Positions 23,221 to 36,072 of a DNA stretch of 64,000 nucleotides are shown in pieces. Positions within the stretch are counted from its first letter, which is position 1. Each line of letters opens with the position of its first letter. The position numbers and the translations under genes are program-made. The notes below the pieces were generated by a model. That model saw only the letters and a program-made list of their open reading frames with translations, ran no database searches and was not told where the DNA came from. The stretch lies in IMG/VR virus record IMGVR_UViG_3300027819_000008, positions 27,405 through 91,404 of that record; one strand, given 5' to 3'. The DNA is from a virus (taxonomy: Duplodnaviria > Heunggongvirae > Uroviricota > Caudoviricetes).

Positions 23221-24504
23221 CTATCCCTTCACGCAGAGGACACCCTTGAGCACGTGCACCACGTCCACCAGGTCGGCCTGCGCGGCCATGACCGCGTCTA
23301 TGTCCTTGTAAGCTGCCGGCGTCTCGTCCAGCACCCCGGCATCCTTGCGGCACTCCACGCCGGCCGTCGCGGCCTCGTGGTCGGCCACCGTGAACTCCCG
23401 CTTGGCCCGGCCACGCGACATGCGGCGCCCGGCCCCGTGGCTGCACGACTGGAACGACTCGGGGTTCCCCCTGCCGCGCACGATGTACGACCGCGCGCCC
23501 ATGCTGCCGGGGATGATGCCGAGGTCGCCGAGGCCGGCGCGGACCGCGCCCTTGCGGGTCACCAGCACCCGCTCGCCGAAGTGGACCTCCTCGGCGACGT
23601 AATTGTGATGGCAGTTAACGACGACCTCGCACGCCCCGAGCCCCGACGCCCAGTAGGGCGCGCTGCCGCTGGGCGCGAAGGCGAACGTGTGCTTCTGGAC
23701 CGCGGCGAGGACGGCGCGCAGCATGACCTCCCGGTTGGTCGCGGCGTATCGCTGTGCCCACCCCACCGCCTCGACGTAGTCGTCGTACAGCGGCGTGCCC
23801 CGCGACAGCCACGACAGGTTCGGGTCGTGGCCCTGCGGGAGGCCGGCCGCGGCCTGTGGGAGCGTGGCGAACGCCATCTCCAGCGGGTGCGTCGCGACGT
23901 ACTCCTTGGCCTTGTCGATGAAGTACTGCCCGATGCCGTTGCCGACCCCGCGGCTGCCGCTGTGGAGCATGACCCACACGCGCTGCTCCTCGTCCAGGCA
24001 CACCTCGACGAAGTGGTTGCCCCCGCCGAGCGTCCCGAGCTGACAGAGTGGCGTCTGGCGCCGGCTCCTGACCGCCAGCGGGTGCTTCTGGTGAATCGCC
24101 GCGTAGCCGGCGGCTAGCGGATTCACACCGCCCGCCCACTCCCCGAACGGCGCGCGATCCTCCCGGTGGGCGCCGAACCCGACCGGCACGCCCCACTCTA
24201 TGTCCGCGCGCATGGTCTTCAGGCTCTCCGGCAGGTCGGACGCGGTCAGCGGCGTGCGCGCGGCAACCATGCCGCACCCGATGTCCACCCCGACCGCGGC
24301 CGGCACGATTGCCCCCACGGTCGCGACCACCGACCCGATCGTTGCGCCCATGCCCCAGTGCACGTCCGGCATCACCGCGAGGTGGCGAAAGATGAACGGC
24401 AGGGCCGCCGTGTTCCGCAACTGGTTCAGCGCCTCGTGCTCGACCTCGACGCCGTCGGTCCACATCTTGATCGGCGCGCGCCCCTTTTCCACGATCTCCC
24501 TCAT
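23221..24504 (-). CDS. rtcB: RtcB RNA 3'-phosphate/2',3'-cyclic phosphate-5'-OH ligase
   Basis: MPDVHWGMGATIGSV, GCGM, GGGNHFVEV, HSGSRGVG, NCHHNY, GSMG and SCSHGAGR motifs. ATG at 24504 overlaps the upstream TGA. Confidence 0.9.
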   Translation of the reverse strand: MREIVEKGRAPIKMWTDGVEVEHEALNQLRNTAALPFIFRHLAVMPDVHWGMGATIGSVVATVGAIVPAAVGVDIGCGMVAARTPLTASDLPESLKTMRADIEWGVPVGFGAHREDRAPFGEWAGGVNPLAAGYAAIHQKHPLAVRSRRQTPLCQLGTLGGGNHFVEVCLDEEQRVWVMLHSGSRGVGNGIGQYFIDKAKEYVATHPLEMAFATLPQAAAGLPQGHDPNLSWLSRGTPLYDDYVEAVGWAQRYAATNREVMLRAVLAAVQKHTFAFAPSGSAPYWASGLGACEVVVNCHHNYVAEEVHFGERVLVTRKGAVRAGLGDLGIIPGSMGARSYIVRGRGNPESFQSCSHGAGRRMSRGRAKREFTVADHEAATAGVECRKDAGVLDETPAAYKDIDAVMAAQADLVDVVHVLKGVLCVKG

Positions 24505-24932
24505 TCCGGGACTCCGCGTAGCATCCGCTCCACGAGCGAGCGCGCCCTGAGGATGTTGGCCGAGTCGTTCCACAGGCGGCTGCGGCCGGACGGGTGCGGC
24601 AGCATCACCGCCTGAAAGTCCGGGTCCACGCTCACGACCGCGAACGGTTGAAACGACTTGGGTAAGAATGCGTCGGCCACCTTGGCCCCGAGGAGGATCA
24701 GCGGCCGCGGGGTCCGGCGCAGGATCTTGGACGCAGCCTCACGCGCCTGGCGCGTCGACCACGCGCCGAGGCAGAGGTTCACCCGGTCGAACGCGCGCAG
24801 GTACTCGCGCTGCCCCATGTCGAGGATCAGGTGGCAGAGCCGGTGGCCGGCGCAGCCGGGCGGGTCGGGCCACAGCGCGTACTGTGGGTCCGGCCCATAG
24901 GGATTGACCTCGCCGACGAGGAGCGGCCTCAC
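24501..24932 (-). CDS. UDG-superfamily-like protein
   Basis: VGEVNPYG (GExPG-like motif A) and LPHPSGRSRLWN (HPS-like motif B). GTG start overlaps the stop of the 56-aa gene. Confidence 0.4.
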   Translation of the reverse strand: MRPLLVGEVNPYGPDPQYALWPDPPGCAGHRLCHLILDMGQREYLRAFDRVNLCLGAWSTRQAREAASKILRRTPRPLILLGAKVADAFLPKSFQPFAVVSVDPDFQAVMLPHPSGRSRLWNDSANILRARSLVERMLRGVPE

Positions 24933-25099
24933 TTCTTACCTCGCAGCTGGTCGTGCTTGTCCAGCATGGCCTGCAGCTCGTGCGGCGTCTGCGCCGCGTA
25001 GGTGATGCCGTCGCGGGCAGCCACCTTCGTCGGGGGCCCGAGGTACTCGTCAGGCTGCGCCCACCAGGCCGGAGTGTTCGTGTGCTTGCGTCGGCTCAT
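24929..25099 (-). CDS. hypothetical small protein (56 aa; below the ORF-track length cut-off)
   Basis: ATG with an AAGGGAG Shine-Dalgarno site 7 nt upstream, 2 nt after the dnaB TAG. Its TGA overlaps the next GTG. Open frame verified codon by codon (MSRRKHTNTPAWWAQPDEYLGPPTK...). Confidence 0.45.
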   Translation of the reverse strand: MSRRKHTNTPAWWAQPDEYLGPPTKVAARDGITYAAQTPHELQAMLDKHDQLRGKK

Positions 25100-25101
25100 C
25101 G

Positions 25102-26460
25102 CTACTCCCTTGTATCCGCGCCGTCCCCCTCCGCCTGCGGAAGGTCAGCCACGGGGGTGATGGTCATGCGACCGAGATCCACCGCGTACATCCCGCACGA
25201 GCGCTCGTCCTCCTCCTCGCGGAGCGCGGCCGCGTAGAGCCGCCGCATGCGGGCCGCACGGAGCTCCGCGTCCGCGCAGATGGCGATGGCGCCGTCCAGC
25301 ACCGCGATGACCTCGAAGGCCTCCGCGATGTCGGTCTTCCGGATGAACTTCTTGTCCACCGACGCGCGGTTGACGAGCGCGGCCGACCACACGACCACGC
25401 CCTCATTCTTGGCCAGCGCGCTGATCTCCCGCGAGGTGCGCGCGAGCTCGTGCCGCTTTTCCCGCTCGTTGCGGGAGGACCCCATGATGTTGAGGTAGTC
25501 CAGCACGGCCACGTCCACGCGCCCCCCGCGCTTGCGAATCTTCTCTATCCACCGGGCGGCCTCCGCGCACGCGTTGCTCTGCTGCGGGGTGGACTCCCAC
25601 ACGTAGAGCTCCCCACCACCCGCGGCCCGCAGCCCGCGGATCGCGCGGTCCAGGAGCATCGGGTTGTCCTGCAGCTCCTGCTTCGTGGCCTTGGCGAGCG
25701 AGCGGTCCGCGCGGTACAGCACGCGCTTCGCGCGCATCTCGTAGGAGACCATAAAGGCCCCGAAGCGGCGGCGCACGGCCCCGAGCGCGGTGGTCAGCTC
25801 GAACGTGGTCTTCGCACCCTTTGGTGGGGCCAGGAAGTAGTACGACTCCCCAATGCGTGGGCCCCCGGACAGGGCCTCGTCCAGTCCCAGGAGGCCGGTC
25901 GGAATCCGCTGGCCCCCCTGGTCGTCCGACCCCCACTCCCGGATGCGGTCGGCGGACCCCCCGACGAGCTGCTCCACCTCCGCGGCCGTGCCGGGCTCGT
26001 GCGACGCGAGCTCCTCCTCCACGTACTTCCGGACCACCCCGTAGTCGCGGTCCGGGTGCTCCAGCATCTGCGCGGCCTGCACGAGCGCGCGCGAGTACCG
26101 CTGATACATGGCCCAGTCCCGAATCTGCTGCTCCGCGAACCCGTGATCCTCAGGCAGGGGGACGGCCGACACGGCCTCCCACTCGGCCAGCAGCAGCGTC
26201 CGCTCCTGCGCAGTGACGCGCGCGGCGTCGCGCCGCACGAGCTCGTCGATCGCCGCGGTCCCGGGCGGGGTCCGGTGGGCCTCCCAGTACTTGACGACCT
26301 GCTCCGCGATGCGCTGGCGCGGCGGGCGCAGCTGGGCGGACCCGAGCCCCCCGAACATCTCCGCGCTCAGCGCCCCGGGGATGCGCGCCGGCCAGTCGCG
26401 TTGGACCGCCAGCGCGAGCACGAGCTGCTGGAAGCGCTCGCTCCAGGTCGGGGCGGCCAC
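25102..26460 (-). CDS. DnaB-family replicative helicase
   Basis: Walker A APPKGAKT, VDVAVLDYLNIMG (like DnaB LIVIDYLQLM) and ISALAKNEGVVVWSAALVNRA. GTG at 26460 with a GGAGG Shine-Dalgarno site 9 nt upstream; the track N-terminus is junk. Confidence 0.8.
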   Translation of the reverse strand: MAAPTWSERFQQLVLALAVQRDWPARIPGALSAEMFGGLGSAQLRPPRQRIAEQVVKYWEAHRTPPGTAAIDELVRRDAARVTAQERTLLLAEWEAVSAVPLPEDHGFAEQQIRDWAMYQRYSRALVQAAQMLEHPDRDYGVVRKYVEEELASHEPGTAAEVEQLVGGSADRIREWGSDDQGGQRIPTGLLGLDEALSGGPRIGESYYFLAPPKGAKTTFELTTALGAVRRRFGAFMVSYEMRAKRVLYRADRSLAKATKQELQDNPMLLDRAIRGLRAAGGGELYVWESTPQQSNACAEAARWIEKIRKRGGRVDVAVLDYLNIMGSSRNEREKRHELARTSREISALAKNEGVVVWSAALVNRASVDKKFIRKTDIAEAFEVIAVLDGAIAICADAELRAARMRRLYAAALREEEDERSCGMYAVDLGRMTITPVADLPQAEGDGADTRE

Positions 26461-26461
26461 C

Positions 26462-26791
26462 CTACGAAACCTCCACGCCATGCGCGGCGCAGTAAGGATC
26501 GTACGCGCCAGCGCAGGCGCACCGGGACCGCTTCGGCGACCGCCGACGCGCGTAGTAGAGCATCTGCCCGGCCCACACGGTGTTCGCCAGCGTGATGGAG
26601 ATCCCACCGAGGAAGCTGAGCCACTGACCGAGGTGGGGGTAGTACGCGAGGTGCCAGAAACCCCACGCCATGAAGAACGCGGTCGGCCCGACCCGAACGC
26701 CGCGCACCTGCTTGTCCCGGTACAGCGCGACGACGTTGGTCCAGATCATGACCGACCCGACGAATTCAAACAGGCTGTTGATCAGGTCCAC
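26462..26791 (-). CDS. small membrane protein
   Basis: Hydrophobic helices; aromatic-rich, non-junk composition. Confidence 0.4.
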   Translation of the reverse strand: MDLINSLFEFVGSVMIWTNVVALYRDKQVRGVRVGPTAFFMAWGFWHLAYYPHLGQWLSFLGGISITLANTVWAGQMLYYARRRSPKRSRCACAGAYDPYCAAHGVEVS

Positions 26792-26795
26792 GTGT

Positions 26796-27512
26796 TTACA
26801 GTCGCCTCCTCAGCGACGGGCCGCTCACCTGCACCAGGCGGAAGTGCGCGGGGTCCAGCAGCCGGTCCGCGCAGCGCTCCCCGAACCGCTGGGGAAACGC
26901 GCTCACCGGTGCGTTCACGGTCACGATCAGGTGGCGGCCGAGCTCCGGCCACCGCAGCAGCCTCAGCACGACGGCCTCCTTCCAGTCCCCGGCCGCGTCC
27001 ACGTCCAGGTCATCCACGGCCAGGGCTACCACGCGCTCGCGCAGCTCGTTGAGCAGCTCGACCTCCACGTCAGCCTCCCCGCCGCGGACCCTCCACGCCG
27101 TGCGCAGCCGGTCGCGCAGGTCGGCCCACGTCTCGAACCACACGGGGGCCGGCCGGCGGCGGAGGCGCCCGGAGGTCACCTCGGCCTCATACCCCGGCGA
27201 GGTGACGACGTTCCACAGCCCGCGGTCCCCGTGACCCCGGCAGGCCATGACGCGCACGGCGCACGCCGCGAGCCCACTCTTGCCGAGGCCGGTCGATCCC
27301 TGCAGCACCAGACCCCGGGGACCGGAGCTCAGCGGACTCCTCACCGCATCAGCCCACTCCTGTACGGCGTCCCGCACTCTGGCCGCGCCGGGGAACCCGT
27401 CGAACCGGTACGCGCGCATGGCCTCCGGCAGGTTGGTCGCGGCCACCCGCGCCTGCCGCGTGTTGTGCGCGAGGGTCAGGGACTCGAGGTCATCCAGCTG
27501 GTGGTCCGTCAT
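26796..27512 (-). CDS. DnaC/IstB-like AAA+ helicase loader
   Basis: Walker A LQGSTGLGKSGLA and Walker B LAVDDLDVD. ATGA overlap with the initiator gene. Confidence 0.65.
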   Translation of the reverse strand: MTDHQLDDLESLTLAHNTRQARVAATNLPEAMRAYRFDGFPGAARVRDAVQEWADAVRSPLSSGPRGLVLQGSTGLGKSGLAACAVRVMACRGHGDRGLWNVVTSPGYEAEVTSGRLRRRPAPVWFETWADLRDRLRTAWRVRGGEADVEVELLNELRERVVALAVDDLDVDAAGDWKEAVVLRLLRWPELGRHLIVTVNAPVSAFPQRFGERCADRLLDPAHFRLVQVSGPSLRRRL

Positions 27513-28354
27513 TCGGCCTCCTGGCGCCGCAGCATCTCGTCCACGCCCTCCTGCCAGTCCACCATGTCCTTGCCCGTGCGGTAAACGAGGTGGTTCGGCG
27601 CATCACCCGCGGACCGCGCAGCGGCTAGGTGGGCCGGAAACTTCAGGCCCCACATCCACAGCAGGTCCTTGAGTCCAGAGAAGCGCTGACCGGCGTCCCA
27701 CTGACTTCTCGCGTAGTCGGCCACGGCCAGGAGGTCATCGGGCGTGTACCCCTCCGCCAGGCGCTTGCGCATGAGGCCGAGAACCTTTGGTCCGTACGGC
27801 TCCGCAGTGGAGTTCGTGACTGAGAAGTTGATCCCCATCCGGCGCCGGGCTCGTTCCATCAGCGACACCTCCTCGTGGCGCTGCAAACTTCCGCGGGCCG
27901 TAGTCCCCGAAGGGGACTTACCATTTTCAGTAGACCCAACTATATATTTACTATATGCACTTGGAGAAACACGCCGCCCTCGTGGCGCGGGAATTAAGTC
28001 TTCATGGTTTTCCCAGCCGGTACCTGAAGACTTAGTTCCACCGTCCCCTCGTAGGCCGGGAACTAAGTCGTCGGACGTAGAAACACCCCCACGAGGGGAA
28101 CCGGGAACTAAGTCTTCTCGTGGAATTAAGTCTTCATGCCGGCCCGGACCCAGCCACGACTGCACCGGCAGGAGGGCCCACAGGCCGCGTAGCCTTGGCG
28201 CGATCAGCTTCAGGTCGGTCAATTCCCGACGGGCCGCGGTCACGTAGCGCGAGCCGAGTCCAGTGGCCTCCACCAGCTGCCCCAGCGTGCAGGGAAACGA
28301 GCCGTCTGGTTCCACGGTGACCCGACCGCGCAGCAGCCGCATGGCCCAGTACAC
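27509..28354 (-). CDS. replication initiator / replisome organizer (lambda O-like architecture; origin inside the gene)
   Basis: N-terminal winged HTH (FPCTLGQLVEATGLGSRYVTAARRELTDL). Internal peptide repeats (EDLIP/EDLVPG) are encoded by the iterons. C-terminal domain YTPDDLLAVADYARSQW. Confidence 0.55.
   Translation of the reverse strand: MYWAMRLLRGRVTVEPDGSFPCTLGQLVEATGLGSRYVTAARRELTDLKLIAPRLRGLWALLPVQSWLGPGRHEDLIPREDLVPGSPRGGVSTSDDLVPGLRGDGGTKSSGTGWENHEDLIPAPRGRRVSPSAYSKYIVGSTENGKSPSGTTARGSLQRHEEVSLMERARRRMGINFSVTNSTAEPYGPKVLGLMRKRLAEGYTPDDLLAVADYARSQWDAGQRFSGLKDLLWMWGLKFPAHLAAARSAGDAPNHLVYRTGKDMVDWQEGVDEMLRRQEAE
27921..28135. promoter_or_regulatory. putative origin of replication: palindrome + AT-rich unwinding element + 4 direct and 1 inverted 14-bp iterons (GGAAYTAAGTCKTC)
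   Basis: Palindrome GTCCCCGAAGGGGAC at 27903-27917, outside this interval. AT-rich tract ccattttcagtagacccaactatatatttactatatgcac. Direct iterons at 27989, 28058, 28103 and 28122; inverted copy at 28027. Confidence 0.55.
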
Positions 28355-28391
28355 CCGCAGCCCGCGGTCGCTGATGGTCTGCAGGAGGGAC

Positions 28392-31103
28392 CTACTGCGG
28401 GCCAGGGACGGCTCCGACCAGGGCGTGACCCTGCTCGCGGTACAGGCGCACGCGCTCCAGGGTGTGGAGCGCGAGGTGGTCCTTGTCCGGTCGGTCGGTC
28501 GGGGCGCCCCCGTCGGCGAAGTCGTACACGTCCACGGTGGTCTTGTCCGCGCGCGGGCGCAGCGCCCGGCCCAGGGCCTGCAGCGTGTCCACCTCGGACT
28601 TCCCCCCGGCCGCGTTCACGAACGCATCTATCTCCGGCAGGTCCACCCCCTCGCGGAAGAACGGGGTCGCGATGAGGAGCGCCCCGGTCGTAGCAGCCCG
28701 GAACGCCCCGAGCACGGCCTCGGCCCGCCCGGTCCCGACGTCGTCCCGGTCCAGCTGCCAGCACGGGTACTGCCGGGACACCGCGGACCACCAGTCGTGC
28801 AGGGCGCGGGCGTGCTCCACGATGCGGCACAGGACGAGGACCCGGTGGCCCTGCTTGGCGTGGTGCATCGCGATGCGCAGCACCCGCGCGTTCCGCTCCC
28901 GGTTGGTGGTGATCCCCCGCTCGTAGAAGGTGCCGTACAGCTGACTCCCCATCGTCTGCAGCCGGCGCGGGTCCCTCTTCCAGTCCGGGAGCACGATCTC
29001 GCGGACGTCCTCGTAGGACGGGTAACTCGAGGCCGGCGGACGCACGAAGCGGATGGTCGCGCGCGCCAGGTAGCCCTGCTGCGTCAGCGCGGTCGTGTCC
29101 GTCAGCACCACGATCGGGCCAAGCGCCCCCTCCATGTGCAGAGCGCGGACGGGGTCCTTGATGTTGACCGCGGTGCCCGACAGCCCGAGGCGGGTGCGCG
29201 CGCCGACGCACGCCTTGGCCACCGCGAGCCACGTCGCCGCGCTCGCGTGGTGGCAGTTATGTACTATGAGTCCCAAGCCTACGATGTAGGTGTGGGCGCG
29301 CTCGACTTCAAGGTTGTAGACGTAACCGTCTGGACACACGCCTCCAAATGTTCCATCACGTCCCGGTTCGAGAACCTCAACACTGTCCACCCGGCGCCTT
29401 TCAGGAAGTCTTCTTTCCGCTTGTCCCGGGCCCGTACCATCCGCGATCCGTGGCTCCCGCCGTCCACTTCTATCGCGATCTTCTCGGCTTTGTTCGCCAC
29501 ATCCACCTTGTAATGACTGGGGAGCCCCCTGAAAGCCGGACGCCGCCCCGTAGACACGACGACTTCCACTGGCCAACCTAATGCGTTGGCAAGTGCTTGC
29601 TGGGCAGCGGGGATCGGTTTCCCGTTGCCCCCTTGCGTCCGCGGCTTGTGGCCCATTGCTCGCAAGGTGGAGGAAACTTTCGCCCGCGACGTTGGGGACC
29701 TCATTGGGTTGTGCACCCGCATTCGTTGGGAGGCGCAACGTCGGTTCGTCGCGGCCATCGTTCTTGACGAGAGCTGTGCACACCACAGGCGCCGACACCG
29801 CTCGCTGCAATAGGCGCGTCTCACTGAGCGCCAAAGGTGCCGGGTTCCCTTGGTTGTGACTTTGGTCAACTCGCCACACCACGTGCACGTTACTTGAATC
29901 TCCGTCGGCCCCCACAGGCGGCGAGCCAGAGCCTTGAATTTCGCTGAAGCTTCCAGCTTGGCCTGCGTTGTTCGACACGTCGCGGAGCAGTATGCACGGG
30001 CCGATCTTCTGTAAAGCTTTCTCGCTACAGGTGTTTCCACCCGCGTTGCTTTCTGACATGTCGTGCACGGAACTTCTAATGGTACTGTCATGGTGCGTCC
30101 AGCATAACACAACGGACCCGGCGCAAAGTTTACCCGCAGCTACCCAGCCAGTTTCCGTCAAGATTGGGTGGTTCGGAGTGCAGACTATCTTTTCCCCGGA
30201 GACTGTGAGTCGTACCAAGCTTAAAGCGCGACTCCGCATGGTGTGAGTAACTTTGGCCATGACGTAACTGTCCTGGTACCACGCGGGGACAACGTCCCCC
30301 ACCTGAATAGATGAGATGGGTACATTGCCAACCATGGTGGACCCTGGAAAGCACTCGTCCTCTATCAGCATGTCGAAGTCCCGGAAGTACGGCGCGGTCA
30401 CCGAGTTCTTCAGCGAGGCCGTGAGCCCGACGGTGACCTCCCCCAGCTGGAACTCCCCGTCCCCGACCACGCCGAGGGTGACGGTCGGGAGGGACTCGCG
30501 CAGCTGGTCCAGCGTCTGCCGGAGCAGCGCCTGCGTCGGGACCACCCACAGCACGCACCCGCCGTGCTGGCGGGCCATCTCCACCCCGATCTTGGTCTTG
30601 CCGCCGCCGGTCGGGCACTGCAGGATCAGGCGGGGGACCGGCAGCGTCCGGAAGAGCTGGAAGGCCTGCAGCTGGTACGGGCGCCACTCTATGGTGGTGG
30701 GTGGTGCGAGTGGGAGTCGCTGCTGCGCGGTCTCCCGGGGCTCCACGAGGGCCACCCGGTACTTGTGCTCCTGCAGCACGCGCTGGACGCGCGCGAGGAG
30801 GCCGGTCTCAAACGAGTTGCCGGGTCGGCGCAGGAACTTGGTGCTGCCGTCCCAGCCAAACTTGGAGGCCCGGCTGTACTTGGCCTTCGGGTTCTTGACG
30901 GACAGTGCGGTGCTGACGAGCTCCACGGCCTCGTCGGGCCCGGTCAGGACCGAGCGCACGACGCCGACCCGGATCGTGCAGTCCGCGGTGTCCACGTCCC
31001 CTATATCCTGCGAGGTGGGTTGTATGGCGCGCACCGAACGCGCTACCATAGGGACCTCACCGTGCCTCTGGGTTAGCTGCAGCGCCCCGGGTCCGGCGGC
31101 CAC
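28392..31103 (-). CDS. SF2 DECH-box DNA helicase (ResIII/XPB-like) interrupted by an intein
   Basis: Walker A ILQCPTGGGKT. Motif II DE|CH is split by the intein (LIEDE + intein + CHHAS). Motif VI is QALGRALRP. GTG at 31103; an alternative ATG lies at 31049. Confidence 0.8.
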   Translation of the reverse strand: MAAGPGALQLTQRHGEVPMVARSVRAIQPTSQDIGDVDTADCTIRVGVVRSVLTGPDEAVELVSTALSVKNPKAKYSRASKFGWDGSTKFLRRPGNSFETGLLARVQRVLQEHKYRVALVEPRETAQQRLPLAPPTTIEWRPYQLQAFQLFRTLPVPRLILQCPTGGGKTKIGVEMARQHGGCVLWVVPTQALLRQTLDQLRESLPTVTLGVVGDGEFQLGEVTVGLTASLKNSVTAPYFRDFDMLIEDECFPGSTMVGNVPISSIQVGDVVPAWYQDSYVMAKVTHTMRSRALSLVRLTVSGEKIVCTPNHPILTETGWVAAGKLCAGSVVLCWTHHDSTIRSSVHDMSESNAGGNTCSEKALQKIGPCILLRDVSNNAGQAGSFSEIQGSGSPPVGADGDSSNVHVVWRVDQSHNQGNPAPLALSETRLLQRAVSAPVVCTALVKNDGRDEPTLRLPTNAGAQPNEVPNVAGESFLHLASNGPQAADARGQRETDPRCPASTCQRIRLASGSRRVYGAASGFQGAPQSLQGGCGEQSREDRDRSGRREPRIADGTGPGQAERRLPERRRVDSVEVLEPGRDGTFGGVCPDGYVYNLEVERAHTYIVGLGLIVHNCHHASAATWLAVAKACVGARTRLGLSGTAVNIKDPVRALHMEGALGPIVVLTDTTALTQQGYLARATIRFVRPPASSYPSYEDVREIVLPDWKRDPRRLQTMGSQLYGTFYERGITTNRERNARVLRIAMHHAKQGHRVLVLCRIVEHARALHDWWSAVSRQYPCWQLDRDDVGTGRAEAVLGAFRAATTGALLIATPFFREGVDLPEIDAFVNAAGGKSEVDTLQALGRALRPRADKTTVDVYDFADGGAPTDRPDKDHLALHTLERVRLYREQGHALVGAVPGPQ
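29256..30353 (-). mobile_element. intein (366 aa) in helicase motif II
   Basis: Block A CFPGSTMV, block B GEKIVCTPNHPILT, block F VYNLEVERAHTY, block G IVGLGLIVHN followed by extein Cys. The central ~250 in-frame aa are low-complexity. The surrounding region has lower GC. Confidence 0.75.
29279..30112 (-). CDS. DUF559/Vsr-like (PD-(D/E)xK) endonuclease with two zinc ribbons, nested in the +1 frame inside the intein
   Basis: Two CxxC...YCSxxC repeats. C-terminal region HYKVDVANKAEKIAIEVDGGSHGSRMVRARDKRKEDFLKGAGWTVLRFSNRDV matches the DUF559 core. The frame differs from the intein frame. Confidence 0.65.
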   Translation of the reverse strand: MCYAGRTMTVPLEVPCTTCQKATRVETPVARKLYRRSARAYCSATCRTTQAKLEASAKFKALARRLWGPTEIQVTCTWCGELTKVTTKGTRHLWRSVRRAYCSERCRRLWCAQLSSRTMAATNRRCASQRMRVHNPMRSPTSRAKVSSTLRAMGHKPRTQGGNGKPIPAAQQALANALGWPVEVVVSTGRRPAFRGLPSHYKVDVANKAEKIAIEVDGGSHGSRMVRARDKRKEDFLKGAGWTVLRFSNRDVMEHLEACVQTVTSTTLKSSAPTPTS

Positions 31104-31134
31104 ACACCGCCGGACCCATTCCCCTCACCGGCCG

Positions 31135-31524
31135 TCACAGGCAGGTCGCCGTGTGGCCCTCGACGCGAACCCCTCTGGGGCAGCGAAGCTCGGAGCCGCC
31201 TGCGCTACTCGGCACCTCCGCGAGAGTTCCCCGCTTTTCATTCATGCAGCGCTCGAAGTCTGGACCCTTGGCTGCACCAGTCTCCCTTGCGCAAACCGCT
31301 CGCTGCTGTACGTTGTGGTAGAACGGAATCGCGATCGCGGCCAGGATGCCGATGATCGCGGCGACGATCAGCAGCTCCACTAGCGTGAAGTCCTTCGGCC
31401 GCCACTTATCGTCGCGGAAGGCCCACCGCAGGTAGCTCGCGATGGCCCGCCCCGCCGCCCGGAACAGCGGCGCGGCGAGCACGAGAACGACCGCGAGGAT
31501 TACGACGATGGCCACAGCGCGCAC
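31135..31524 (-). CDS. prepilin-type N-terminal cleavage/methylation-domain (type IV pilin-like) protein
   Basis: KDFTLVELLIVAAIIGILAAIAIPFY matches the type IV pilin N-terminal helix. GTG start with an AAGGAG Shine-Dalgarno site 5 nt after the SPFH stop. Unusually long hydrophobic leader. Confidence 0.4.
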   Translation of the reverse strand: MRAVAIVVILAVVLVLAAPLFRAAGRAIASYLRWAFRDDKWRPKDFTLVELLIVAAIIGILAAIAIPFYHNVQQRAVCARETGAAKGPDFERCMNEKRGTLAEVPSSAGGSELRCPRGVRVEGHTATCL

Positions 31525-31529
31525 CCGGT

Positions 31530-32402
31530 CTACTCCTTCTTCGCGGGCGTCGGCATCGGGACCTGGAGCAGGACGCCGGCGGTGCCGCTGACGTGTGGAA
31601 CCTGCGAGCCCCCGGCCTTCCACGCCTCCACCGCCTGCTGCTGGACGAGGATCGGGGTCAGAGACGCGGAGACCTTGGCGTTGTACTCGGCCTGGGCCGT
31701 CCCCTTGGTCCGCAGCGCGTCGGCCTCGCCCTGGGCCTCGGCCCGGACGGCGTCGGCCTCGCCCTTGGCCTTGGCCGCTCGGGCGTCGGCCTGCTGGCGC
31801 ACCTGCTCCACCTTGTGGCGCTCCTGAAGGGCCTTCTGCTGCTCGATCTGCTTGTCCTCGACCGACTTCATGTAGGCGCCCGACGGGGCGAAGTTCACCA
31901 GCTTCACGCCGTTGTCCGCCACGATGATGTGGTATGGGAACACGCGCTCCTTCAGCGACTTGGTCACCTCGACCCGCAGCTTCTCGCGGTTCTGGATGAT
32001 CTCGTCCAGCGCGAAGTGCGCGGTCCCGGCCTTCAGCGAGTCGTCCAGCGCCGGCCCCAGGATGCGCTCCTTGTAGGCGTGACCGGCCTGGCCCTGCCCG
32101 AACATCTTGTGGCAGTTGGCCCCGTCCAGCGAGTAGTTGACCACGACGTCCGCGTGGACCTCCTGGATGTCGCGGGTCGCCGCCGCCATCTTCAGCTTCT
32201 GGAACGCCTGCTCCTGGACGCTGATGATGTCCATGTTTGTGCCGAACGGCTCGTACCAGTAGAGGCCCGGGCCGTAGCACTTGGCGTCCATCTCGCCCCA
32301 GCGGGAGAACACGGCGCTCTCCCCCTGGTCCACCTGCCCGCACGCGGCGCCGAGCACCAGCACCACGGCCAACATCATGAGCGTGAACAATCGCCTCACC
32401 AT
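31530..32402 (-). CDS. SPFH/band-7 (prohibitin/stomatin-like) membrane protein
   Basis: N-terminal TM segment plus SPFH domain plus a Gln/Ala/Glu-rich coiled coil. ATG at 32402 with an AAGGAG Shine-Dalgarno site. Confidence 0.75.
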   Translation of the reverse strand: MVRRLFTLMMLAVVLVLGAACGQVDQGESAVFSRWGEMDAKCYGPGLYWYEPFGTNMDIISVQEQAFQKLKMAAATRDIQEVHADVVVNYSLDGANCHKMFGQGQAGHAYKERILGPALDDSLKAGTAHFALDEIIQNREKLRVEVTKSLKERVFPYHIIVADNGVKLVNFAPSGAYMKSVEDKQIEQQKALQERHKVEQVRQQADARAAKAKGEADAVRAEAQGEADALRTKGTAQAEYNAKVSASLTPILVQQQAVEAWKAGGSQVPHVSGTAGVLLQVPMPTPAKKE

Positions 32403-32468
32403 CGCGCTCTCCTTTGAATGGGGGTTGTGAGAGGGGAAACACACACTAAGGGATATCCGTTCGGTTCC

Positions 32469-34091
32469 CTATGACCCGAGGTGCCACTTGCCGTCTATGA
32501 TGTTGATCAGCGCTCGCTTACCATTCGGGTAAATGACGCAGTGGGTGTGGAGCCAGCCGCTCGGGTACCCGGCGCCGTAGGTCAGGTTCAGGAGGCTGCT
32601 GGTGCCGACCTGGTAGGCGCCGTCCATGATCCCGGGCGAGTGAGCGTGACCGATGACCGACCGGACGCCCAGCTTGCGGAACCCCTCGCGCGAGCCCCGC
32701 GTTCCACCCGGGCCGCGGTCCCCGTGGTAGCTGACCTCTATGCCCTTGATTTGGTACGCGTGGTCCCGGCGGAGGAACACCGTCTGCTTGGCGGTCTTGA
32801 GCTTCTTCATGCCCCAGTAGGCGAAGGGGTCCCGGACCGAGACGCCCGCGGGGGTCCACCGCGTCTCCGTGGAGCGCAGCACCGCGAGGTACGTCTCCGC
32901 CCAGAACATGCAGTTCTCGGGGTCGCGCCGTGGGTCGGTGTTCTCGACCCACTCGCGCAGGAAGTCGTGGTGGTTGGAGGCGACCAGGACGTTGCGCGCG
33001 TCGGCGGGCGTGACCCGGTCGATGAACTCGAAGGTCCGGTTGATCTCCGCCTCGACGTTCCGGCGCCCCGAGTGGTGCTTCACGTACTCGTGGAAGGCTC
33101 GGCCGCGCTCGTGGTGGTTGTTGGACTGGCCGTCGAAGACGTCGTGCCAGACCAGCTGCTCGGGCCGCAGCGACTTTACGATGGAGTCGGGAGCCGTGAA
33201 GGTTGCGGCGACGACCGCCGGGTCTATTACCTCCACGTGGGTGTCTCCCATGACGAGAGCCGGCACTCGCTCGTAGCGCCGTATCTCGTCCCCGTCGTAC
33301 TCCGCGAGCAGGTCGCAGAAAGAACCGTCCTTGGTCATGTTGAGCTGGCGCAGGTGAAACGCGTCGCCCTCGAGCTCGACCACAATCGCACCGAAGGTAT
33401 GGTGGAACTCGCCCTTCTTGCCGGCCTTTGACGGGATGTAGTTCTTTTTGGTGACCGAGCCCGTCGTGGACAAAACCTTGGGAAGCTTCTGCTGCGGCGT
33501 TGGGATCGTCAAGAGCTCCAGCTTCGGGTGGCCGACGATTCCGGACCGGGGTCCGGTGATCGTCTCCAGGCCGTCCAGGGGACGGGTCGCGGTCGGCTGC
33601 ATCGCGATGTCTCCGAGCAGGACCAGGTGGCGGTTCAGGTCAACCCTCCGGTTGATCAGGTAAGGCAGGACCTCAGCCGTCCACCAATCGTCGTGCTGGG
33701 CCTTCGCGGACCACATGCTCGTTGGGTTCTTGTAGCGGTACGGGATTACCAGGAGCTGGGCCCCGCGGTCCCGACAGTAGGTAATCAGGGACTTCATGGC
33801 GTTGGCGTGAACCGGAGTTGCGTTCTGCGCCGCGGTGACCACGTAGATGGCCGGGCCCTTTCGGCTGCCGAGGATCGCCTTGCGCAGCGACTCGGCGGTT
33901 TCCTTTGGGACGCCGCTCATGGCCTCCAGCTCGGACCCGACTGCGTCCGTTCCGTGCCACGTGCACTTCAGGCGCTGCGCGACGCGGTGGGTGTAGCGCA
34001 GCCTGCCTCCTCGTGAGGAAGCCCGGCGAAATACGGGTTCGTGGCACTCCGGGCAGAACGTGGTGTGACTCGGCGTGCGCGCTGCTGCCAA
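32469..34091 (-). CDS. calcineurin-like metallophosphoesterase with N-terminal zinc ribbon
   Basis: LVMGDTHVE (GDxH), LVASNHHDFL (GNHD/E) and SVIGHAHSPGI (GHxH) motifs. N-terminal CPECH. Confidence 0.6.
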   Translation of the reverse strand: MAAARTPSHTTFCPECHEPVFRRASSRGGRLRYTHRVAQRLKCTWHGTDAVGSELEAMSGVPKETAESLRKAILGSRKGPAIYVVTAAQNATPVHANAMKSLITYCRDRGAQLLVIPYRYKNPTSMWSAKAQHDDWWTAEVLPYLINRRVDLNRHLVLLGDIAMQPTATRPLDGLETITGPRSGIVGHPKLELLTIPTPQQKLPKVLSTTGSVTKKNYIPSKAGKKGEFHHTFGAIVVELEGDAFHLRQLNMTKDGSFCDLLAEYDGDEIRRYERVPALVMGDTHVEVIDPAVVAATFTAPDSIVKSLRPEQLVWHDVFDGQSNNHHERGRAFHEYVKHHSGRRNVEAEINRTFEFIDRVTPADARNVLVASNHHDFLREWVENTDPRRDPENCMFWAETYLAVLRSTETRWTPAGVSVRDPFAYWGMKKLKTAKQTVFLRRDHAYQIKGIEVSYHGDRGPGGTRGSREGFRKLGVRSVIGHAHSPGIMDGAYQVGTSSLLNLTYGAGYPSGWLHTHCVIYPNGKRALINIIDGKWHLGS

Positions 34092-34135
34092 TACTTACCT
34101 CTTCAAAAGATATATCCGAAGGTTGACGGTGTGTT

Positions 34136-34762
34136 CTATGGCAGCAGGAACCCGGCCGCGCACCCGATCCCCGCGCCGACGAGCGTCCCGATGCCGGGGA
34201 ACACGGCGCTGCCTCCGAGGGCTCCAGACGCGCAGCCCGCGATGGTGCGCGCCTTGCGCGTCTCCCGGGCGGCCTCCGCGCGCACATCATCCACGCGGGC
34301 CTTCCAATGGTCGGCGCGCTCCTCGTCGATGCGCGCGAGGTCGCGCAGCTTGTCGGACTTCTGGCGCTCCAGGTCCAGGAGCTCGCGCAGGGCCGCGCTC
34401 TTGGCCTGCTCCAGCTCCAGGCGCTCCTGCAGCAGGGCGTTCGTCCGGCCGAACTCGCGCCCAGCCGCGGCCTCCCCAAGCAGGCGCACGTAGTCCGCGC
34501 GCGGGGACCAGAACCCCTCGTCGGACTCCTGGGCTCCAGCGCCGGACGGGAAGACGGTGAGCGAGATCAGGATCAGCAGGAGCGCCCAGGCGAGCACCCA
34601 CCAGTTGCGCTCAGCCGCCGTGAGGAACGCCCCGAACGCACTGCTGCACTCGTACTTGGTCAGTGGCCGCCCGTTCCACGGCCGCCACCGCTCCACGTCG
34701 CCGTCGAACACGGGGGGCAGGGAGGCGGACCAGACCTTGGCGAGCTGGATGGTGTCAGTCAC
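34136..34762 (-). CDS. membrane protein with coiled coil and C-terminal glycine-zipper helix (spanin-like)
   Basis: GTG overlaps the upstream TGA. TM segment WWVLAWALLLILISL, coiled coil, then GALGGSAVFPGIGTLVGAGIGCAAGF. Confidence 0.35.
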   Translation of the reverse strand: MTDTIQLAKVWSASLPPVFDGDVERWRPWNGRPLTKYECSSAFGAFLTAAERNWWVLAWALLLILISLTVFPSGAGAQESDEGFWSPRADYVRLLGEAAAGREFGRTNALLQERLELEQAKSAALRELLDLERQKSDKLRDLARIDEERADHWKARVDDVRAEAARETRKARTIAGCASGALGGSAVFPGIGTLVGAGIGCAAGFLLP

Positions 34763-35151
34763 CGCGGGCGCCGCGCCGGGACGGCCTCGTAGCCGAGCGC
34801 CCGCGCCTGCTCCACCACCTCGGGCGCGGTGCCGGTCGCGGCGAGCACCTCGAAGGTCCGGCGCGTCTGGGCCAGCTGGGCGCCGGCCTGGCGCAGCTTC
34901 TCGTCGGTCGCGCGCGCCTGCACCTCGATGCGCCCGATGTTGGCCTCCAGGCGCGCGGCGCGCCGGTCGAGGTCCGCGATCCCCGCCTGGGCCGCGGCCT
35001 TCGCCGCCTTGCTCGCCACCTCCACCTGCTGGTCCTGCTGGGCGCGCAGCGCGTCCAGCTGGGACGTCAGGGACCAGCGGTCGAGCACGATGGCGGCGAC
35101 CAGCGCGAGGATCACCCAAAACCAGACCGGCACGTGGCGAAGCAGGCTCAC
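34759..35151 (-). CDS. i-spanin (Rz)-like: N-terminal TM segment + periplasmic coiled coil
   Basis: GTG overlaps the holin-like TGA. TM segment VPVWFWVILALVAAIVL followed by a coiled coil. Confidence 0.4.
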   Translation of the reverse strand: MSLLRHVPVWFWVILALVAAIVLDRWSLTSQLDALRAQQDQQVEVASKAAKAAAQAGIADLDRRAARLEANIGRIEVQARATDEKLRQAGAQLAQTRRTFEVLAATGTAPEVVEQARALGYEAVPARRPR

Positions 35152-35447
35152 GGTGTCCCCGTGCTGGGCCCACCGCCGTTGGTGTGGCCGTTCCCGTTGC
35201 CGTTGGCCTTGCCGTTGCCGTTGCTCCACTTGAGCCGGATCCACTCCTTCAGCAATTCGGGGACGACCAGGATGCCCCCGACGACGCCGAATAGCCACGC
35301 CAGGGCCTCGGTCGGCGGGGCGACCCAGACGACCTTGAGGAATCCGGCAATGAGGGCGCCGGCCCCGCCGAGGCGGATGAGCTTGGTCGTGGAGCGGCGC
35401 CCGGTGGCCTCGTCGTCCAGGAACTCATCCAGCCGCAGGCGCGTCAC
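35148..35447 (-). CDS. holin-like two-TM small protein
   Basis: Two hydrophobic helices and an Asn/Gly-rich polar C-terminus. GTG overlaps the upstream TGA. Confidence 0.4.
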   Translation of the reverse strand: MTRLRLDEFLDDEATGRRSTTKLIRLGGAGALIAGFLKVVWVAPPTEALAWLFGVVGGILVVPELLKEWIRLKWSNGNGKANGNGNGHTNGGGPSTGTP

Positions 35448-35602
35448 CGCATTTCCTCCCGCCGCGTTAGGTCCTCACGCCGCTGGGCACGCGACACGAA
35501 GCCGATCGCCCGGCTGTTTCCGAGCAGTACCTGGTGGGGGTTGCACATGCAGCGCGCGGAGGCCCGCTGCTTGATCGGTCGGCGCCTCTTGTGGTGAGCC
35601 AT
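35444..35602 (-). CDS. small basic protein (52 aa)
   Basis: ATG overlaps the hydrolase TGA (TGATG). Its TGA overlaps the holin-like GTG. Sequence MAHHKRRRPIKQRASARCMC... Confidence 0.35.
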   Translation of the reverse strand: MAHHKRRRPIKQRASARCMCNPHQVLLGNSRAIGFVSRAQRREDLTRREEMR

Positions 35603-36072
35603 CAGGTCCGCTCGTCCGTCTCCGGACGCTCGCGCACCGTCCACCAGCAGTCCTCGCCGGCGCGGATGCGCGGGATGACCTTGGCCTTCAGCGCCTTGAG
35701 CGCCGCCCCCGACGCCCCGATCCAGTTGTCGGTCTTGGACGCCTGCTCCTGGCCAACCAAGGGGCAGCCCTCAGTGTCGTCGGCCTTGTTACCTGCGTGG
35801 ACGCGGATGTACTTGAAGCCCGGCACGCTGATCAGGGTCAGGGTGTCCGGCCCAAACCGCGCGGAGTGCTCCAGGACCACGCGGTAGCGGCCGGTCGGAA
35901 TGGCCGTCTTGCCCTGAACCTTCACGCGTTCGATCTCGCCGGGCGGCGTCTCGGAGTCGAGGTCCCGCGCCCGGTCCTCCAGCGTCCAGCACTCGCGCGC
36001 CCCGTTCAGGGAGAGCTCGCCCTCTGTCGCGTCGTCGGTGAACCAGCGCCGCGTGGCGACGAGGTCGATCAT
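35602..36072 (-). CDS. putative cell-wall hydrolase with L,D-peptidase (YkuD)-like His...Cys signature
   Basis: FKYIRVHAGNKADDTEGCPLVG gives a His-x10-Cys spacing. Adjacent to the holin and spanin candidates. Confidence 0.3.
   Translation of the reverse strand: MIDLVATRRWFTDDATEGELSLNGARECWTLEDRARDLDSETPPGEIERVKVQGKTAIPTGRYRVVLEHSARFGPDTLTLISVPGFKYIRVHAGNKADDTEGCPLVGQEQASKTDNWIGASGAALKALKAKVIPRIRAGEDCWWTVRERPETDERT

Follow-up and report, generated by a model that had tools for sequence, protein, structure and literature searches.

The window analysed here, a stretch of 64,000 nucleotides (nt) from a virus of the Caudoviricetes (IMG/VR record IMGVR_UViG_3300027819_000008, positions 27,405 to 91,404) to whose whole length all window coordinates refer, contains a superfamily 2 (SF2) helicase gene with an intein in its motif II (DE/xH, the slash marking the insertion point). 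Very probably this is a mobile class-1 intein whose homing endonuclease is an independent gene overprinted in another reading frame; in the following the helicase frame is called frame 0 and the frame of the nested open reading frame (ORF) +1. The overprint would cover the middle of the intein and some of its C-terminal splicing lobe. Frame 0 would be translated straight through, with an unstructured, stop-free linker of about 220 residues joining the two HINT lobes, which would then fold and excise the intein, rebuilding DECH and giving an active helicase. Ribosomes starting at an internal ATG just past the N-terminal lobe would make a free protein of 270 amino acids (aa), composed of one or two FCS-type zinc ribbons, depending on the family member, and a Vsr-like/DUF559 nuclease. 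This nuclease presumably cuts intein-less helicase alleles near the DExH codons, and repair would then transfer intein and nuclease gene as a unit. From the sequences and models described below we infer internal initiation, protein splicing, DNA cleavage and homing.

The helicase product shows a ResIII/DEAD domain at its N-terminus (Pfam ResIII, E=8e-10), Helicase_C at its C-terminus (E=7e-8) and a match to the DNA helicase family phrog_16 of PHROG (E=6e-52). An earlier reading of the window from its sequence only had described a 366-aa intein splitting the helicase within motif II as LIEDE/CFPGS...IVHN/CHHAS, and all of these sequence statements check out. Excising the intein in silico restores the DECH motif (insertion DE/CH), and the splicing residues C1, T59-P-N-H62 of block B, H365-N366 and C+1 are all present. 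Across 23 homologues C1, T59, H62, N366 and C+1 are invariant, and the penultimate histidine is replaced by serine in three of them (P0106, P0121 and P0124). A PT-HINT match was also seen, and a Foldseek search of the Protein Data Bank (PDB) with the confident parts of the intein model returned the NpuDnaB, Ssp DnaB, DnaX and gp41-1 inteins as best matches (probability 1.00, E=3e-5). In the AlphaFold2 (AF2) model of the frame-0 intein only the two lobes are confident, with a predicted local distance difference test score (pLDDT) of 88–97, and the linker between residues ~90 and 311 has a pLDDT of 30–49 and no secondary structure. A Pfam scan found no domain in the in-frame middle and thus no canonical in-frame LAGLIDADG or HNH endonuclease, as had been claimed. 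By its residues, its single stop-free ORF and its predicted HINT fold the element would belong to the class-1 HINT inteins, and it probably splices, as suggested by the intact catalytic residues, the selection on frame 0 described below and the placement of the helicase in a replication module.

Inside the intein and on the same strand an ORF (29279..30112) is open in the +1 frame. Its product matches DUF559 (Pfam PF04480, E=6e-13, 49 bits against a cutoff of 20.6) and carries two CxxC...CxxxC modules, which appear in the structure model as a repeated strand-strand-helix-helix module. The first of these zinc ribbons gives a weak match to Pfam zf-FCS (E=0.018). In the second all four cysteines are invariant in an alignment of seven phages, and in an alignment of 47 sequences C69, C72 and C95 are invariant and C99 is conserved in at least 90%. 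The model of the nested product is confident (pLDDT 91) and matches DUF559, I-Bth0305I and Vsr; it shows a Vsr-like fold and catalytic E, D, H and D residues of the EDxHD type. The nuclease domain also has a match to 3hrl (E=4.5e-9). The two zinc ribbons and the DUF559/Vsr-like core proposed from the sequence are confirmed. The start codon had to be revised: the proposed TTG at 30112 gives way to a conserved ATG at 30091 as the most likely start, which makes the gene seven codons shorter.

A tblastn search with the nested protein landed inside annotated single-gene helicases of six GenBank phages, namely Corynebacterium phage phi673, Vibrio phages CP-T1, 1.088.O, 159E43-1b and 104E43.1 and Pseudomonas phage MR14. 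All six have one uninterrupted helicase coding sequence, an intein at DE/CH and a DUF559 ORF of 204–256 aa in +1. Scans with the nuclease alignment, covering one genome per species plus IMG/VR, added 153 further loci, and 87 distinct strong matches were assessed. In 85 of them an ORF of 687–2546 aa spans the nuclease match in a frame relative to which the nuclease is +1; in none is the nuclease at +2 or in frame. The sequence-only reading had made its proposal depend on homologues of the nested ORF conserved in related phages, and this layout is indeed shared by the 85 loci. The nested ORF itself is intact in 86 of the 87 at nuclease identities down to ~35%, the sole possibly broken one (L126) having a stop inside the first zinc ribbon. 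Apparent nested-frame stops in L080, L152 and L105 were discarded as they lie upstream of the true start, those in L102 and L104 are the terminator of the ORF itself, overrun by the tblastn match, and calls of a split gene for L160, L163 and L165 were rejected because frame 0 is continuous when read.

The junctions are nearly always DE/C(F/M)...HN/CH, with a few located two or four residues downstream (DEAH/C, DEAHHA/C). The insertion follows DEAH in the giant ORFs L133 430-8067 (2546 aa) and L141 2-5164 (1721 aa) and DEAHHA in the helicases of L018 and L165. The presence of the same intein and nuclease at these shifted sites suggests occasional retargeting within motif II. All GenBank records inspected annotate the helicase only, and gene callers applied to metagenomes overlook the nuclease or else break up the helicase.

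Two compensating sequencing or assembly errors could in principle have displaced a DUF559 domain that is truly in frame, and one locus looks as a single-base error would make it look: in L167 420-2890 (JGI 3300037810 Ga0376277_0041324; protein P0158, 496 aa), and only there, the N-extein and the N-terminal lobe stand in the frame of the nuclease. This one-base shift truncates the helicase, and the frame of the C-terminal lobe and the C-extein is still open across the nuclease region, which argues that the standard layout underlies this locus too; L167 is a one-base frameshift, either real (a natural fusion or fractured variant) or an assembly error. Two protein searches returned no nuclease in frame within an intact helicase, all 103 matches of the first being 150–286 aa long. 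The second, a profile search of the full library, gave 987 clusters (50% identity) at E<=1e-30, and among its best 150 matches 149 have 158–329 aa, P0158 being the exception. An in-frame endonuclease in relatives was what the sequence-only reading had wanted searched for, and its absence from intact helicases among these matches upholds the nested gene. With the same +1 phase in 85 of 87 loci, which come from independent projects and comprise finished genomes of phage isolates, and with a frame 0 free of stops against expectation, the chance that such errors created the arrangement is negligible.

The helicase might instead be a fractured gene with a split intein of the type described by Dassa et al. 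(2009), in which two polypeptides are trans-spliced and a free-standing Vsr-like nuclease gene lies between them. PHROG families 16259 and 9690 match the N-terminal half with the N-intein and the C-intein with the C-terminal half separately, some gene callers cut relatives into pieces, and the nuclease is of the Vsr-like superfamily, the 3' end of its gene running into the coding sequence of the C-intein as in the loci of Dassa et al. However, frame 0 passes through the intein without a stop, both in the window and in 85 related loci, and loci split by gene callers prove continuous when read, which makes a fractured gene extremely improbable.

Selection on the two frames was analysed with 73 non-identical inteins, pairs of 80–99.5% nucleotide identity serving as close pairs. 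Column identity is high in frame 0 at intein residues 1–80 and 341–366 and high in +1 at residues 181–340, and at residues ~321–360 both frames are appreciably conserved. It amounts to 0.30–0.62 in frame 0 versus 0.14–0.23 in +1 in the N-terminal lobe and to 0.56–0.76 in frame 0 in the C-terminal lobe; where both frames code, it is 0.36 (frame 0) and 0.53 (+1) at residues 321–340 and 0.56 and 0.41 at residues 341–360. The close pairs show the same division: 75% of the differences in the N-terminal lobe fall at frame-0 third positions (80 synonymous, 18 non-synonymous), and 64% of those in the nuclease core fall at +1 third positions. For codons with a single difference in the core, the +1 reading gives 153 synonymous and 63 non-synonymous changes, frame 0 only 44 and 184. 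In the overlap with the C-terminal lobe the pattern is mixed, with substitutions over all three codon positions. As judged from these substitutions, purifying selection acts on frame 0 in both splicing lobes and on +1 in the nuclease core, and about 40 codons appear to be constrained in both frames. Together with the conserved phase, the excess of synonymous changes bears out the claim that the nuclease is a separate gene nested in another frame. Selection of the linker for low hydrophobicity was rejected, as its observed hydrophobicity of 0.289 compares with 0.294 after synonymous permutation; there is no bias beyond the avoidance of stops, the expected stops being replaced mainly by Ser, Gln and Glu.

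These substitutions also bear on the idea of a decaying relic, in which a fixed mini-intein carries a junk loop and the +1 ORF is intact only through recent shared ancestry. Mini-inteins lacking the nuclease do exist (P0114, P0116, P0121 and P0124), L126 carries a stop in its nested frame and the translation signal in the window is weak. Against decay stand the near-universal integrity of the distinct ORFs despite their divergence, the invariant catalytic residues and zinc ligands, the confident nuclease model and the synonymous excess in +1, and we consider a relic very unlikely.

For the start of translation, the family points to a codon, usually ATG, at intein residue ~85–100 and a few residues ahead of the first CxxC. 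Of 73 loci, 39 have a Shine-Dalgarno sequence of the GAGG/AGGAG type (at least 4 nt) ahead of it; in many members the GAGG-type sequence stands 7–10 nt from the ATG and is encoded by the frame-0 motif D-E-V-L. Programmed +1 frameshifting, giving a fusion of N-extein, N-intein and nuclease, could replace independent initiation, since a third of the loci lack a recognisable Shine-Dalgarno sequence, the nested ORF starts within a translated region and L167 shows that such a fusion can be encoded. We regard this as unlikely in view of the conserved and well-spaced start signal in so many members, the free-standing nuclease homologues (L011 and L142) that begin at the equivalent methionine and the stops that close the +1 frame shortly before the ATG in several loci; the inspected sequences, in which no systematic search was made, revealed no conserved slippery motif. 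At its other end the nested ORF extends ~11–12 codons beyond the intein into C-extein coding sequence in L007 and L103, and elsewhere, wherever the nested ORF is intact and both junctions could be placed, it ends 3.7–17.7 codons short of the intein end.

The helicases P0114 and P0116 are near-identical to P0109 and lack the nuclease-coding middle of its intein through a clean deletion, which leaves a mini-intein of ~150 aa, and P0121 and P0124 have mini versions of this intein too. Because the nuclease region is so cleanly deleted in P0114 and P0116, the frame-0 linker appears dispensable. In a Spirochaetaceae metagenome-assembled genome (DAOWEB010000035.1; L011 3968-6033) a free-standing nuclease ORF of 204 aa overlaps the start of a helicase by ~37 nt. 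Its product is 60% identical to nested nucleases and is encoded directly upstream of this intein-less SF2 helicase (motif DESH), which shares 39% identity with the spliced helicases that host those nested nucleases, and L011 may represent the same homing nuclease living freely next to the gene it targets. It is therefore likely, given that this nuclease adjoins an intein-less helicase related to the nested hosts, that a free-standing, helicase-targeting homing endonuclease gene invaded a mini-intein.

Presence and absence of the intein can be compared in Corynebacterium phage phi673 and phage phi674, the helicase of the latter having been reported without an intein (PMC6132909). The two genomes are ~85% identical overall and the exteins ~99% identical over 1605 nt. 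Right after GAG, phi673 has the 906-nt intein and phi674 lacks exactly this segment, the empty site in phi674 gp40 being GAG/GTGCATCAC. Within 25 nt downstream of the site there are five clustered substitutions, among them those that turn GTG (Val) into TGT (Cys) at +1. In the window the intein has a GC content of 0.58 (0.59–0.63 at third codon positions, GC3) versus 0.70 and 0.73 in the exteins (GC3 0.92–0.95), and as these values lie well below those of the exteins they indicate acquisition from a lower-GC donor with amelioration still incomplete. A megablast search of window positions 24000-36000 against the phage collection gave no match, look-ups of both window proteins by exact sequence were likewise empty, and no intein-less allele of this helicase was found.

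Several observations weigh against an overprinted, independently translated and mobile nuclease gene. The window has only GGA as Shine-Dalgarno sequence before the ATG, 25 of 73 loci have none, and a promoter and terminator scan of 28300-31400 found nothing, including no promoter-like site inside the gene. Pfam Intein_splicing scores 30.6 bits on the window intein, below its curated cutoff of 35.8, and phi673/phi674 is a single pair that could reflect precise loss rather than gain. Also, the sequence-only reading had argued that two frames open over such a length are improbable by chance, which from the window is a weak argument. Permuting the synonymous codons of the nested ORF gives a mean of 6.2 helicase-frame stops (P(0)=0.0003), but the same test with the GC-rich codon usage of the exteins gives P(0)=0.245, so that the openness of the window is compatible with chance. 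The relatives bear the argument out: the six GenBank phages, at 42–59% GC, have no helicase-frame stop where 5–20 are expected (P<=0.005), and their third frame has 12–21. This comparison settles what the window alone leaves uncertain, and the absence of the expected stops in lower-GC relatives shows selection against stops in frame 0.

Whether the zinc-ribbon/DUF559 protein constitutes a large homing endonuclease family (about 1000 clusters at 50% identity) which occurs almost only as a +1 overprint on one motif-II intein lineage, maintained in phase in phages of many bacterial phyla and with about 40 dual codons, is in our view an even bet. If true, it would be the most widespread and oldest known pair of intein and nuclease sharing DNA in different frames, a natural system for studying the conversion of a free-standing nuclease gene into an intein domain, and a role for part of the DUF559 family of 'unknown function'. 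The family bears on how inteins gain endonucleases and whether protein splicing came first. Its arrangement resembles a stable stage on the way from a mini-intein with a separate, free-standing nuclease gene to the canonical two-domain intein. Relatives in the free-standing, nested, nuclease-deleted and frameshift-fused states have all been found and can be compared, and the phi673/phi674 pair would suit a direct test of homing. The family is also a clean natural example of overlapping genes with a clear selective logic, one frame needing only openness, the other under purifying selection and a short zone constrained in both.

Table 1: Features of the helicase gene, its intein and the nested nuclease gene in the window.
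Feature	Position	Strand	Remarks
SF2 (ResIII/Helicase_C) helicase precursor ORF	28392..31103	minus	903 aa, one open frame through the intein
N-extein (aa 1-250)	30354..31103	minus	ends in motif II ...LIEDE; GC 0.70, GC3 0.92
Putative class-1 intein, CFPGS...IVHN (helicase aa 251-616)	29256..30353	minus	366 aa; Cys1...His-Asn, then +1 Cys
C-extein (aa 617-903)	28395..29255	minus	starts CHHAS; GC 0.73, GC3 0.95
N-terminal HINT lobe (intein aa 1-88)	30090..30353	minus	blocks A, B; AF2 pLDDT 92-97
C-terminal HINT lobe (intein aa ~315-366)	29256..29411	minus	blocks F, G; AF2 pLDDT 88-95
Frame-0 read-through linker (intein aa ~90-311)	29421..30086	minus	stop-free, otherwise unconstrained, predicted disordered
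Nested +1 gene, putative homing endonuclease	29279..30091	minus	270 aa; coordinates include the stop; conserved ATG at 30091
Zinc ribbon 1 (C9,C12...C35,C39)	29975..30067	minus	FCS/MYM-like 'AYCS..C'; missing in many family members
Zinc ribbon 2 (C69,C72...C95,C99)	29795..29887	minus	in every family member
Vsr-like/DUF559 PD-(D/E)xK nuclease domain (nested aa ~172-263)	29303..29578	minus	invariant D197, E208, D210, H214, D223
Dual-coding zone	29279..29411	minus	+1 nuclease C-terminus (GWTVLRFSN...) and frame-0 C-lobe start (RVDSVEVLEPG...), both conserved

The genes around the helicase (Table 1) encode a DnaB-like helicase, a DnaC-like loader, an SPFH-like protein and a PHROG 'DNA transfer protein', and these neighbours mark a replication region of a phage or prophage. 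A short ORF (31135-31400, minus strand), located between the start of the helicase and the SPFH-like gene, has a type IV pilin-like N-terminal methylation motif, KDFTLVELLIVAAIIGILAAIAIP. Its Pfam N_methyl match (E=7e-4) is just under the cutoff, and such a motif is odd for a phage replication region.

The sequence-only reading knew of no comparable arrangement, but here it was mistaken, as three reports precede ours. As cited elsewhere, Gorbalenya (1998) described non-canonical inteins with the nuclease antisense or in another frame, and antisense LAGLIDADG nucleases have been known since. Gosselin, Arsenault and Gogarten (bioRxiv 10.1101/2025.01.02.630785) reported antisense LAGLIDADG, antisense VSR-like and same-strand frame-3 EndoVII-like nucleases in inteins of the DNA polymerase, minor capsid, terminase and thymidylate synthase genes of actinobacteriophages, and Phillips et al. 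(bioRxiv 10.64898/2026.09.14.751524) a +2 ORF with frame-dependent purifying selection in a cyanobacterial dnaX intein. The general arrangement is thus known, and the helicase intein has its features: a nuclease ORF outside the extein frame, an extein frame that is stop-free and domainless across it, and purifying selection in +1. For this widespread family itself we found no report in the literature, save one sentence on a putative intein in phi673 gp43.

The inteins of Gosselin et al. are closest in design. They too are contiguous and of full length, with the nuclease ORF at the usual endonuclease position but in another frame, a stop-free and structureless in-frame translation and a proposed origin from a free-standing nuclease gene invading an intein, and nucleases of the VSR-like superfamily are among them. 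Their VSR-like ORFs are, however, antisense with HTH-type N-termini, and their hosts are not helicases. We checked the VSR inteins of Angelicage and Keitabear, which have nuclease ORFs of 291 and 266 aa on the opposite strand, and the nuclease profile of the helicase family gave no match on these two nucleases. A relation to the published VSR-like intein nucleases was rejected, these being antisense and missed by the profile. The dnaX intein shares the overlapping ORF, the frame-dependent purifying selection and its reading as a secondary invasion of a mini-intein, but there the frame is +2, the host is cellular dnaX and Vsr is unmentioned, in contrast to zinc ribbons and DUF559 in +1 within phage SF2 helicases.

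Other systems share only part of the arrangement. In the fractured genes of Dassa et al. (2009; PMC2677866), which likewise concern phage DNA metabolism, a Vsr-like or GIY-YIG endonuclease gene lies between the halves of a split intein; an autonomous Vsr-like gene occupies the endonuclease position and its 3' end runs over the C-intein (overlap 6–69 bp), but the host consists of two ORFs that need trans-splicing, whereas here the host frame is open and the intein contiguous. ShiLan, an out-of-frame HNH insertion in phage methylases without splicing domains (Arsenault et al. 2025; PMC11855218), likewise has a mobile nuclease ORF out of frame with a host gene that reads through stop-free, but its in-frame product stays in the protein, while here the read-through would be removed with the intein. 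In the EDxHD homing endonucleases typified by I-Bth0305I (Taylor et al. 2011; PMC3239194; PDB 3R3P) NUMOD or HTH modules are expected at the N-terminus, which in the helicase family carries zinc ribbons, and the similarity of the nested product to 3r3p is not significant (E=0.06). Compared with all these systems the helicase family is, by its sequences, distinctive in combining a same-strand +1 ORF, FCS-type zinc ribbons joined to DUF559, a location in motif II of an SF2 helicase and an overlap with both splicing lobes.

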